Part shown: positions 1,590 through 5,290 of the stretch, one piece after another | Layout: the number at the start of each line of letters is the position of its first letter | How positions within the stretch are numbered: the first letter of the stretch is position 1 | Source: Escherichia phage ECp13 | Length of the DNA stretch: 64,000 bases | Sequence record: PP274704.1 | Direction: 5' to 3' (one strand) | The notes under the pieces: model-generated | What the model was told of the DNA's origin: nothing | Seen by the model: the letters and a program-made list of their open reading frames with translations, nothing else | Databases searched by the model: none | Position numbers and translations under genes: made by a program

Positions 1590-3101
1590 TTATAAATTAA
1601 CTGTTTTCATTACGTAATTAAATTTTTCATCTGCATATCGCTGAATACGATCAATGCCGTGTTTTAAAAGATAGTTCAAATGAACGTATTTCTTTTTCGT
1701 ATTAGCAGATTTTGGCTTAACACCGCAATCATCTATGAGGTCCCAGACTGTTGCGATTGTTTTAGAACCGTGTTTACGTAATACGCGACCTATTGTTTGC
1801 AATACAATAATTTTAGATTTAACACCGTGTGCTAAAACAACGTGATGCAGATTTTTAACTGAAATACCAGTAGAAAATACACCATAACTAGCTACTATAA
1901 TTATTCCTTTACCGTTTTCAGCTAAGGTTTTCATTACATTGCGGGTTTCGGTATCAACTTCCCCTGATACGTAATAAACTTTATCGTATTCATTTTTAAT
2001 TAAATCGAAAATAGCTTTACCATGTGATACATGCTTAAACATGACAAAAGCGTTTTCATCTTTTTGTGCAAGCTTAATAGCTAATTTAGCGATCCATTTA
2101 TTTCTTTTACTGAGCCCAGTAATAATTTTTATTTCTTCTTGGTAAGTTTTTCCCTTTAATTTAGTAGTGAACTCATCGGGATAGCGAAGAAAAATACTAT
2201 TAATTTTTAACTCGGTTACTTGTCCATCTTCCATTAATTTAGAAGTAGTTACTGGCTTAAATATTTCACCAAACATTCCAACATACTGCATGATATTAGC
2301 TTTGCCATCACGTAATGAACCAGATAAACCGAATTTGAACATGCAGTTATTTAAACCTGATATGATAGATGAAATACTTTTTCCAGTAGCAAGATGACAT
2401 TCATCATTCATCATCATTCCAAACTGTGAGAACCATTCTTTCGGTTGTTTTACTACAGTTTGCCATGTACCAACAACGACTGGTGCATCATTTTTATATT
2501 TATCATCTTTTGATGCTCCACCGCCGATTTTCTTTATCATTGCATGACTGAATAAACGATAGTCAACAAAGTCATCAGCCATCTGAGTTGTCAGAGCAGT
2601 TGTTGGAACAATGATAAGAATTTTACCTTCATAATTTTCCAAATAATATCGAGCAAGCAAAGCTTGAATTAAAGATTTACCTGCGGATGTTGGAAGATTA
2701 AGAATTCTACGACGATTAACTAATCCTTCGAACACTGCATCTTTTTGATACCAGTGTGGTTCAATTCTTTTATTTCCTGAATAGATTTCTAATTTAGAAA
2801 GCCATTCATCAAAATCTTTTCTTGATAATTCTTCTTTTTCGTTAATCTGTGGGTCAATCCAGGCTTTATAGCCAAAGTTATCACAGAACTTTTTAATTTG
2901 CCCAACTAAGCCGAATGGAAGAAGGCGATTATAATCTAAAAGACGGATTCGTCCATCCCAGTGGCCATATTTGTACTTCGGATTAAAACGATACCCATCA
3001 GCTTCAAAGCTAAAGAAATCACGGAGTTCATGAAATGTACTTTCTTCACAATCAATTCTCACGTGACTAAAATCATAAAAATGTACTTTAATGTCAGTCA
3101 T
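1590..3101 (-). CDS. uvsW: UvsW DNA/RNA helicase
   Basis: 503-aa ORF; Walker A (NLPTSAGKS), DExH-like (MMMNDECH) and helicase C motifs; length matches T4 UvsW. Confidence 0.92.
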   Translation of the reverse strand: MTDIKVHFYDFSHVRIDCEESTFHELRDFFSFEADGYRFNPKYKYGHWDGRIRLLDYNRLLPFGLVGQIKKFCDNFGYKAWIDPQINEKEELSRKDFDEWLSKLEIYSGNKRIEPHWYQKDAVFEGLVNRRRILNLPTSAGKSLIQALLARYYLENYEGKILIIVPTTALTTQMADDFVDYRLFSHAMIKKIGGGASKDDKYKNDAPVVVGTWQTVVKQPKEWFSQFGMMMNDECHLATGKSISSIISGLNNCMFKFGLSGSLRDGKANIMQYVGMFGEIFKPVTTSKLMEDGQVTELKINSIFLRYPDEFTTKLKGKTYQEEIKIITGLSKRNKWIAKLAIKLAQKDENAFVMFKHVSHGKAIFDLIKNEYDKVYYVSGEVDTETRNVMKTLAENGKGIIIVASYGVFSTGISVKNLHHVVLAHGVKSKIIVLQTIGRVLRKHGSKTIATVWDLIDDCGVKPKSANTKKKYVHLNYLLKHGIDRIQRYADEKFNYVMKTVNL

Positions 3102-3130
3102 GTCTAAATACCGTGTAATAAATATATCTA

Positions 3131-3138
3131 TATTTATA
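3131..3138 (-). promoter_or_regulatory. late promoter (TATAAATA) for uvsW
   Basis: tatttata on plus strand reads TATAAATA on minus strand, 30 nt upstream of uvsW start codon (3101). Confidence 0.6.
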
Positions 3139-3151
3139 CTGAGGAAATATT

Positions 3152-3832
3152 ATGATAGATAAAGATTATATTGCAGAGCTGAAGGCTCTTGATGATAATA
3201 AAGAAGCTAAAGCTAAATTAGCTGAATATGCTGAACAGTTTGGTATAAAGGTCAAAAAGAATAAATCTTTTGATAATATCGTTAATGATATTGAAGAAGC
3301 TTTCCAGAAGCTCGCTAGTGAACCTATGCCAGAGACTGATGGGTTATCTATTAAAGACTTAATTGATGCTGCTGATGCCGCAGACGGATTAAAATATGAC
3401 GATGAAGAAGTCAATCCAGAGGCAGCACTTCTGATTGATTCTCCGGTTAAATCTGACATTAAAATTGAAGTAGTAGAAACGGATAAAATTCCTGAAAATA
3501 CCGATGTTTTGATTGAAGATACTCCTTTTGTTGAAGAAAAATTCGAACAGGCTGTAGCTGAGATTATTGAATCTGAAAAGCCGTCTGTATTTACTCTTCC
3601 GGAAAACTTTAGCCCAAATCTTCAGCTGATTGGAAAAAATCCAGGATTCTGCACTGTTCCTTGGTGGATTTACCAATGGATTGCTGAAACTCCGGATTGG
3701 AAATCTCACCCAACTAGTTTTGAACATGCGTCTGCTCATCAAACTTTGTTTAGCTTAATTTACTACATTAATCGTGACGGATCAGTTCTAATTCGTGAAA
3801 CACGCAATTCTTCTTTCGTAACATTAAAATAA
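3152..3832 (+). CDS. inh: inhibitor of prohead protease gp21 (Inh)
   Basis: 226-aa ORF, same length and position (between uvsW and hoc) as T4 Inh; no segE-like ORF intervenes. Confidence 0.8.
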   Translation: MIDKDYIAELKALDDNKEAKAKLAEYAEQFGIKVKKNKSFDNIVNDIEEAFQKLASEPMPETDGLSIKDLIDAADAADGLKYDDEEVNPEAALLIDSPVKSDIKIEVVETDKIPENTDVLIEDTPFVEEKFEQAVAEIIESEKPSVFTLPENFSPNLQLIGKNPGFCTVPWWIYQWIAETPDWKSHPTSFEHASAHQTLFSLIYYINRDGSVLIRETRNSSFVTLK

Positions 3833-3841
3833 GGATAACTT

Positions 3842-5260
3842 ATGGCTTTTACAGTTGATATAACTCCTAAAACACCTACTGGAGTTATTGATGAAACCAA
3901 GCAGTTTACTGCTGCACCAAGTGGTCAAACCGAAGGTGGAACTATTACCTATGCTTGGAGTGTAGATAATGTTCCACAGGATGGAGCTGAAGCAACTTTT
4001 GATTATGTATTAAAAGGACCTGCCGGTCAAAAGACTATTAAGGTGGTTGCAACAAATACAGTTCCAGAAGCTGATCCTGAAACAGCAGAAACTACGACAA
4101 CTATCACAGTTAAAAATAAAACACAAACAACTACCTTGGCAGTAACTCCTGCTAGTCCTCCAGCTGGAGTAATCGGAACAGCTGTCCAATTTACTGCTGC
4201 CTTAGCTTCACAGCCATCGGGCGCAACAGCCACGTATCAATGGCACGTTGACGGTTCTCCTGTAAGCGAAGCAACTTCTGCTACATTCAATTACACTCCT
4301 ACCACAAGTGGAGTTAAAAAAATCAAGTGCATAGCTCAAGTAACTGCGGCAGATTATGATGCACTGAGCGTTACTTCTAATGAAGTGTCACTGACAGTTA
4401 ATAAAAAGACGCAGACAACTACCTTAGCTGTAACTCCTAATAGTCCTTCAGCTGGAGTAATTGGAACCCCAGTTCAATTTACTGCTGCCTTAGCTTCTCA
4501 ACCCGATGGCGCAACTGCTACATATAAATGGTATGTAGATGATTCTCAAATTGGTGGAGAAACTAACTCTACATTTAACTATACTCCAACTACAAGTGGA
4601 GTAAAAAGAATTAAATGTGTAGCGCAAGTAACTGCAGAAAATTACAATGAAAAGGAAGTTACTTCCAACGAAGTGTCACTGACGGTTAATAAGAAGACAA
4701 TGAATCCACAGGTTGCATTGACTCCTCCTTCTATTAACGTTCAGCAAGATGCTTCGGCTACATTTACAGCTAATGTTACTGGAGCACCTGAAGCAGCACA
4801 AATTACTTATTCATGGAAGAAAGATTCTTCTCCTGTGGAAGGGTCAACTAACGTATACACCGTTGACACCTCATCTATTGGAAGTCAAACTATTGAAGTT
4901 ACTGCTGTCGTTACAGCAACTGACTATGACAGTAAAACAGTTAAAGCAACAGGCCAAGTTCAGGTGACTGATAAAGTTGCTCCGGAACCAGAAGGTGAAT
5001 TGCCTTATGTTCATCCTCTTCCACATCGTACTTCAGCTTATATCTGGTGCGGTTGGTGGGTTATGGATGAAATCCAAAAAATGACCGAAGAAGGTAAAGA
5101 TTGGAAAACTGAAGATCCAGATAGTAAATACTACCTGCACCGTTACACCCTTCAGAAGATGATGAAAGACTATCCAGAAGTTGATGTTCAAGAATCACGT
5201 AATGGATACATCATTCATAAAACTGCTTTAGAAACTGGTATCATCTATACCTATCCATAA
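3842..5260 (+). CDS. hoc: Hoc outer capsid decoration protein with four Ig-like domains
   Basis: 472-aa ORF with repeated ~96-aa Ig-like modules (TTLAVTP...VQFTAALASQP...FNYTPTTSGVK...VSLTV) plus conserved C-terminal capsid-binding region; T4 Hoc is 376 aa. Confidence 0.85.
   Translation: MAFTVDITPKTPTGVIDETKQFTAAPSGQTEGGTITYAWSVDNVPQDGAEATFDYVLKGPAGQKTIKVVATNTVPEADPETAETTTTITVKNKTQTTTLAVTPASPPAGVIGTAVQFTAALASQPSGATATYQWHVDGSPVSEATSATFNYTPTTSGVKKIKCIAQVTAADYDALSVTSNEVSLTVNKKTQTTTLAVTPNSPSAGVIGTPVQFTAALASQPDGATATYKWYVDDSQIGGETNSTFNYTPTTSGVKRIKCVAQVTAENYNEKEVTSNEVSLTVNKKTMNPQVALTPPSINVQQDASATFTANVTGAPEAAQITYSWKKDSSPVEGSTNVYTVDTSSIGSQTIEVTAVVTATDYDSKTVKATGQVQVTDKVAPEPEGELPYVHPLPHRTSAYIWCGWWVMDEIQKMTEEGKDWKTEDPDSKYYLHRYTLQKMMKDYPEVDVQESRNGYIIHKTALETGIIYTYP
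4118..4693 (+). repeat. tandem duplication (2 x ~288 bp) inside hoc encoding two near-identical Ig-like domains
   Basis: Units ~4118-4405 and ~4406-4693 align at roughly 80% nucleotide identity by eye; protein repeats KTQTTTLAVTP...SNEVSLTVNKKT. Confidence 0.8.
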
Positions 5261-5264
5261 TCAT

Positions 5265-5290
5265 AAGGGCTTCGGCCCCTTTCTTCATTT
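5265..5290 (+). terminator. stem-loop (UUCG tetraloop) with U-rich tail after hoc
   Basis: GGGC-ttcg-GCCC followed by cctttcttcatttt, 7 nt after hoc stop. Confidence 0.4.

Follow-up and report, generated by a model that had tools for sequence, protein, structure and literature searches.

Tandem domain-2 modules in the Hoc capsid protein of a T4-like Escherichia phage and their probable origin in an old Tequatrovirus cassette pool

The gene encoding Hoc (highly immunogenic outer capsid protein) was found downstream of inh (3152-3832) and upstream of 24.3, 24.2, and rnlB in the window, the whole stretch of 64,000 nucleotides of Escherichia phage ECp13 (PP274704.1) that was analyzed. A T4-type Hoc sits as one monomer in the middle of every gp23 hexamer on the mature capsid and is dispensable for growth. 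The gene order uvsW, inh, hoc, 24.3, 24.2, rnlB matches that of T4, AR1, and pSs-1, and the location of the gene between inh and 24.3/24.2/rnlB is that of a T4-type hoc. An earlier sequence-only reading had named the gene hoc, and this name is upheld by the conserved gene order and by a phmmer match of the product to T4 Hoc (PDB 5vf3_Z) with an E value of 1.9e-222. Positions 1-25000 of the window share 97.7% identity with the Tequatrovirus Shigella phage pSs-1, and the window phage is a T4-like Tequatrovirus of the pSs-1 group. T4 Hoc has 376 amino acids, and the window Hoc is longer by exactly 96; its residues 1-113 align to residues 1-113 of T4 Hoc, and a second alignment block pairs residues 190-472 with residues 94-376. 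The predicted mass is 50.6 kDa versus 40.4 kDa for the T4 protein (about 10 kDa heavier), and both proteins are acidic, with predicted pI values of 4.8 and 4.7, respectively. A minus-strand open reading frame of 68 amino acids (4027-4233) overlaps the window hoc. The features of the locus are listed in Table 1.

Table 1. Positions of hoc, its domains and repeat units, and an adjoining signal, numbered as in the window
Feature	Position	Strand	Remarks
hoc (highly immunogenic outer capsid protein)	3842-5260	+	472 aa plus stop codon; single ORF
Ig-like domain 1 (aa 1-92)	3842-4117	+	beta-sandwich at residues 1-91 in AlphaFold model
DNA tandem repeat, full extent	4106-4699	+	Tandem Repeats Finder: period 288, 2.1 copies
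Domain-2 module, copy 1 (aa 93-188), cassette type A	4118-4405	+	hmmsearch domain 93-188
KNP1-type deletion junction	4152-4159 (copy 1); partner 4440-4447 (copy 2)	+	gene positions 311-318
Variable patch 1 (module aa 44-56)	4247-4285 (copy 1); 4535-4573 (copy 2)	+	dN/dS 0.45
Variable patch 2 (module aa 77-84)	4346-4369 (copy 1); 4634-4657 (copy 2)	+	dN/dS 0.90
Domain-2 module, copy 2 (aa 189-284), cassette type B	4406-4693	+	hmmsearch domain 189-284
Ig-like domain 3 (aa 285-376)	4694-4969	+	Pfam I-set/Ig_3 match 289-374; aligns to T4 domain 3
C-terminal capsid-binding domain (aa 377-472 = T4 281-376)	4970-5257	+	near-identical to T4
Terminator-like GC hairpin (AAGGGCTTCGGCCCCTT), then T-tract	5265-5281	+	directly 3' of hoc stop codon

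Directly upstream of hoc, no TATAAATA was found, so that hoc is probably cotranscribed with inh. A scan for sigma-70 promoters returned 8 sites, compared with 8.9 in shuffled sequences, and thus no excess. The spacer between uvsW and inh contains, at 3115-3140, a plus-strand AATAAATA and a minus-strand TATAAATA (plus-strand reading of the latter, TATTTATA); these motifs look like divergent T4-type late promoters for inh-hoc and uvsW. The hairpin downstream of hoc probably terminates the inh-hoc transcript; a terminator is annotated at this place in some related records. The gap between uvsW (1590-3101, minus strand) and inh spans about 50 nt in the window (3101-3152), and at this position, adjoining inh-hoc, T4 (3058-3675) and AR1 (144-761) carry the homing endonuclease gene segE. 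We speculate that the presence or absence of segE beside hoc could promote coconversion and mosaicism of the hoc region.

Within hoc, codons 93-284 correspond exactly to positions 4118-4693 and consist of an in-frame tandem pair of 288-nt (96-aa) units. The two units are identical at 221 of 288 nucleotides and 74 of 96 amino acids, without indels or gaps, which at the nucleotide level gives a z score of 20 against shuffles (20,000 shuffles; 74.6 ± 7.3 identical positions; maximum, 103). Tandem Repeats Finder reports 77% matches and 0% indels over the full extent of the repeat (score, 710), and a second repeat search pairs 4106-4393 with 4394-4681 at 77%. These data confirm the tandemly duplicated Ig-like domain that the sequence-only reading had placed at 4118-4693. 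The length and domain count of T4 Hoc had been named beforehand as the comparison by which that claim could be refuted, and the T4 protein proved to be one unit shorter.

The window Hoc is laid out as Ig domain 1, a domain-2 module of type A, a domain-2 module of type B, domain 3, and the capsid-binding domain. Pfam matches to PKD and Ig-type families span the N-terminal 375 residues, with PKD, Ig_2, and I-set above their cutoffs and Ig_3 slightly under its own. An AlphaFold2 model built on 44 relatives (mean pLDDT, 84) contains four beta-sandwich domains, at residues 1-91, 93-187, 189-283, and 285-376, the last being domain 3, followed by a C-terminal alpha/beta domain. The copy 1 module is modeled with block-mean pLDDT values mostly above 90 (one block, 86), and the C-terminal domain is modeled with poor confidence (pLDDT about 40-65). 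The top PDB matches of the model in Foldseek were four-Ig fragments of Dscam1, Sidekick-2, and ICAM-5; the N-terminal string of Ig-like domains that belongs to a Hoc protein is thus found by Pfam, AlphaFold, and Foldseek. The count of four Ig-like modules, against three in T4, was therefore correct, with domain 2 being the one present twice. Copy 2 is the counterpart of T4 domain 2. At the nucleotide level, domain 1 is 100% identical to that of phage KNP1 and 89% identical to that of T4. Domains 1, 2, and 3 of the window Hoc are mutually 28-38% identical, and the duplication of domain 2 is the latest in a series of Ig duplications in Hoc.

The capsid-binding domain is strongly conserved, with a dN/dS of 0.035 between the window and T4. 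In T4 Hoc, the residues contacting gp23 are Tyr293, His295, Arg300, Trp309, Trp310, Asp313, and Glu355-Gly359 (PMC10385173). Their counterparts in the window Hoc, each displaced by +96 (Y389, H391, R396, W405, W406, D409, and E451-S452-R453-N454-G455), are all present and are invariant in 44 relatives, so that the domain carries both the ESRNG loop and the conserved aromatic and arginine residues of a Hoc protein. Because this domain is unchanged, the window Hoc should occupy the hexamer centers as T4 Hoc does. Judged by all of the defining features that can be read from sequence, the protein of the window is a Hoc of the ordinary kind.

The sequence-only reading had implied that a Hoc with an additional domain is unusual, and in this it was mistaken. 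In a search that covered 5.8 billion proteins, the best 120 matches fell into length classes of 376-378, 468-472, and 567-570 aa. A module HMM applied to 122 proteins (the 120 relatives plus the window and T4 sequences) found one module in proteins of 376/378 aa, two in those of 468/472 aa, and three in those of 567-570 aa, with all 122 conforming. When one module was compared by tblastn with GenBank phages, 954 places in 647 records were matched, and an evenly spaced sample of 56 records contained 30 with one module, 23 with two, 2 with three, and 1 with four. A spread sample from a whole-gene megablast search gave single-piece full-length matches in 17 of 60; since the two samples differ (17/60 and 23/56), we give the prevalence as a range, with two-module Hoc present in about a third to 40% of deposited relatives. 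The carriers include AR1, PP01, wV7, Sf21, phiD1, and the nearest relative, pSs-1, whose 472-aa Hoc lies at the same coordinates as that of the window (3842-5260) and contains cassettes A and C. The longest Tequatrovirus allele seen in this analysis is that of Escherichia phage slur14 (NC_028448, 1225-3219), a Hoc of 664 aa with six Ig-like domains, of which four are domain-2 modules in the order A-B-B'-C (74-84% nucleotide identity among themselves). Hoc proteins of 376, 472, 568, and 664 aa thus carry 1, 2, 3, and 4 cassettes, in steps of exactly 96 aa. The two-module Hoc is a common and old allele, and the exact window protein is present in public data. Two further records bear on annotation: that of phage moskry annotates a repeat inside hoc, and MZ501066 (phage FriedrichMiescher) contains the annotation "capsid whiskers protein Hoc part 1," a label suggesting that hoc is split or frameshifted there.

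Repeats of this kind disturb assemblies of hoc, and the pair of units could in principle be a misassembly of a window gene that truly has one unit. The RefSeq record of Shigella phage KNP5 (NC_055713) has a gap of 990 N at about 740-1730, exactly in the hoc repeat region, and annotates just a 588-nt 3' fragment as Hoc; tandem cassettes evidently break short-read assemblies. We give the artefact next to no credence for the window, as the two units differ at 67 of 288 positions, which a read pile counted twice would not, and form an uninterrupted reading frame; the identical 472-aa protein has 9 independent member sequences in database cluster P0009, and hundreds of independent genomes share the two-module architecture. 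KNP5 itself had been a candidate for a longer Hoc on account of a 2,072-nt span, and it was rejected when the span was explained by the assembly gap.

Clustering of 171 modules from the 122 proteins revealed grouping by type and not by phage. Type A is found at the first position and types B and C are found later, with type C comprising the last module of three-module proteins together with the second module of pSs-1 (97% identity between those); single-module proteins carry A, B, C, or mosaics. In every phage examined, modules within one gene are 74-80% identical at the nucleotide level, and orthologues from different phages are 83-100% identical. The window follows this pattern, with 77% identity between copy 1 and copy 2 and 83-97% identity between each copy and its orthologues elsewhere. 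The counterparts of copy 1 (type A) are module 1 of sb2 (94%), the single module of RB14 (88%), and module 1 of UGKSEcP2 and phiD1 (87%), and those of copy 2 (type B) are the modules of KNP1 (97%), module 2 of AR1 (94%), module 2 of sb2 (93%), and domain 2 of T4 (87%). On these sequence relationships, the domain-2 modules are a set of old paralogues, cassettes A, B, and C, in circulation within the gene pool of Tequatrovirus.

Between copy 1 and copy 2 of the window, dS is 0.92, which is near saturation, and dN/dS is 0.16, which indicates that both copies have been kept by selection. Between the window and T4, dS is 0.38 for domain 1, 0.50 for domain 3, and 0.26 for domain 4. The dS between the copies, together with the closer orthologues of each copy elsewhere, places the duplication before the divergence of the sampled Tequatrovirus phages. 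The relatively recent duplication proposed by the sequence-only reading is not sustained by these values. A recent in-frame duplication of domain 2 in the window lineage, starting from a T4-like three-Ig Hoc, would account for an in-frame tandem without indels whose units share 77% identity, and for the single unit of T4. It is nevertheless very improbable: the dS between the copies is about twice that between the window and T4 in other domains, and a recent lineage-specific event predicts copies that are closest to each other with a low dS, which is not what was found. Furthermore, the A-B arrangement also occurs in AR1, sb2, phiD1, and many others, and the single-module phages with A, B, C, or mosaic modules likewise speak against it. 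The dS values also argue against a massive recent horizontal spread of a single duplicated allele.

Compared with pSs-1, hoc is a local hotspot of divergence: domain 1 of the window is only 86.6% identical to that of pSs-1, against 97.7% over 25 kb, and the modules are 83% identical (copy 1 to module 1, and copy 2 to module 2, which is of type C). This sequence pattern indicates that hoc alleles have been exchanged by recombination.

The species group of the window phage also includes phage KNP1, which is 98% identical to the window over 25 kb and has a Hoc of 376 aa. A breakpoint scan revealed that removal of exactly 288 nt from the window hoc yields the KNP1 hoc with 5 mismatches in 1,131 nt; exactly one unit, gained or lost at a homologous breakpoint, thus separates the two genes, as expected for a copy number polymorphism. 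The KNP1 module consists of a short type-A head and a type-B body, as would be expected if the two units had undergone unequal homologous recombination. KNP1 is excluded as the parent, because duplication of its module could not give units that differ by 23%. From the sequence comparison, KNP1 is a recent loss of one unit from a window-like allele. The KNP1 record is flagged UNVERIFIED, which leaves some small chance of an assembly collapse, although two units of 77% identity are unlikely to be merged by artefact into a clean in-frame chimera. In a second case, phiD1 has two modules that match modules 1 and 2 of the three-module UGKSEcP2 with 100% identity. The relations of KNP1 and phiD1 imply that the cassette number is still changing, with loss at least being documented.

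These losses also bear on the possibility that the multicassette form is ancestral, that the three-Ig Hoc of T4 has collapsed, and that the window Hoc is partly reduced and does not represent a gain. The clear recent loss in KNP1 from a window-like allele and the equivalence of phiD1 to UGKSEcP2 without cassette C are in line with such a history. Many single-module proteins, moreover, pair an A-type first variable patch with a KE-type second patch, as deletion chimeras would, and VDDSPVSEATSAT plus ATDYDAKE is found in 16 of 82 single-module proteins. Recombination between misaligned single-cassette genes of different types could equally have built the multicassette forms, however, and in the T4 module the first patch is B-type and the second A-type, the reverse of what a simple A-B deletion would leave. 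The Paracelsus-type allele was tried as an outgroup for A, B, and C and did not root their tree, since its module 1 is equidistant from them (51-53% amino acid identity). We therefore consider multicassette ancestry a serious contender that falls somewhat short of an even chance. As to the direction of the older events, either a multicassette ancestor with later losses or the stacking of cassettes by recombination between single-cassette phages could have produced the present alleles.

The two window copies are intact, and purifying selection holds in both apart from two variable patches, where the differences between them are concentrated. Outside both patches, the dN/dS of the domain-2 module is 0-0.12 (0.02-0.12 in the parts flanking patch 1). 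The patches contain the most variable columns, with high entropy, across the 171 modules; patch 2 variants, among them DYDALS, NYNEKE, and DYDAKE, are combined in many ways with those of patch 1. In the AlphaFold model, patch 1 lies largely between the strands at 129-136 and 148-151, and patch 2 lies between those at 157-168 and 175-178. Going by strand order alone, the patches would correspond to the C'-E and F-G loops, both at the domain's N-terminal end.

Taken together, it is highly probable in our judgment that the two modules are old A and B paralogues of domain 2, drawn from a Tequatrovirus cassette pool in which the number of cassettes varies by recombination, and that they would give a longer Hoc fiber. 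The most likely cause of changes in cassette number is unequal homologous recombination of the 288-nt units, which could occur during replication or in mixed infections. The resulting fiber would gain one Ig domain (roughly 4 nm) over the 18 nm reported for T4 Hoc and about 10 kDa in mass, would be attached to the gp23 hexamer center by the unchanged C-terminal domain, and would display two nonidentical copies of a domain implicated in mucin and bacterial-surface adhesion. Hoc Ig domains have been linked to mucin glycan binding, attachment to the Escherichia coli surface, and pH-dependent dispersion (PMC10385173, PMC9271167, PMC11853027), and residues S183, L184, and T185 in domain 2 of the PNJ-9 Hoc mediate MUC2 binding (PMC11853027). 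Both window copies contain an EVSLT motif that includes the Ser-Leu-Thr of this binding site. Beyond the architecture, homology, age, distribution, and deletion relationship observed here for the window Hoc, a longer fiber with a second, different adhesive domain is likely, and a change in adhesion, avidity, or capsid surface interaction brought about by the extra domain is plausible. A more far-reaching proposal, which we put forward as tentative and rather unlikely as a whole, is that cassette number (1 to 4) is a fast-toggling length polymorphism driven by unequal recombination among the ancient cassettes A, B, and C, that the three-Ig Hoc of T4 is a collapsed mosaic descended from a longer fiber, and that cassette number and patches together tune the reach of the fiber and the choice of glycans or surfaces to which the capsid adheres.

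For practical uses of T4-like phages in display, vaccines, and therapy, it is relevant that the length of Hoc is not fixed at 376 aa and that close relatives, such as the window phage and KNP1, can differ by one cassette. Mucus adherence, immunogenicity, and how well the hoc region is assembled from reads could all depend on such a difference. In the literature searched, which included PMC10385173, PMC11853027, PMC9271167, PMC13435897, PMC10580926, and PMC3012670, we found general variation in Ig number and no explicit description of a domain-2 copy number series in Tequatrovirus, with its A, B, and C cassettes, 96-aa steps, and deletion chimeras; the alleles themselves are abundantly deposited.

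Compared with T4 Hoc (376 aa; PDB 5vf3 and 8t1x; PMC10385173), the window protein is the product of the same gene at the same genome position, with the same C-terminal domain, all of the capsid-contact residues conserved, and homologous domains 1, 2, and 3. The difference is that T4 Hoc has one domain-2 module and the window Hoc has two, which adds 96 aa and about 10 kDa. Hoc homologues in general combine a conserved C-terminal domain with a variable number of Ig domains, from 1 in PG7 to 10 in the 1,174-aa Hoc of Serratia phage Muldoon (PMC10385173). RB49 Hoc has three Ig domains, as in T4, and PNJ-9 Hoc lacks domain 3 (PMC11853027); the Hoc proteins of all these phages share with the window Hoc the conserved capsid-binding domain and a variable Ig string. 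The Ig domains of PNJ-9, Muldoon, PG7, and RB49 are only distantly related to those of the window, and their changes in number did not proceed via the A, B, and C cassettes.

Closer to the window, the Hoc allele of Paracelsus and O157 typing phage 6 (1225-2640; 471 aa) lies at the same locus and has four Ig-like domains and a C-terminal domain near-identical to that of the window. Its middle modules are 40% identical to each other at the amino acid level and 42-53% identical to A, B, and C; the low identity between them implies a split much older than that of the window modules. A database protein of 567 aa (P0050) is a chimera in which a type-A cassette is followed by two divergent Paracelsus-type modules. 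The Hoc proteins of UGKSEcP1/2 (568-570 aa) and slur14 (664 aa) are built from the same cassette family as the window Hoc and in the same order, A coming first and, in these longer proteins, C last, and contain one or two cassettes more. The two-module Hoc proteins of pSs-1, sb2, AR1, PP01, wV7, Sf21, phiD1, and BF15 (472-474 aa) have a five-domain architecture identical to that of the window, with hoc nucleotide identities to the window of 92-94% for AR1, PP01, wV7, Sf21, and sb2 and 88.5% for phiD1. Their differences from the window are only allelic, and pSs-1, though it is the closest genome overall, carries A and C in place of A and B.
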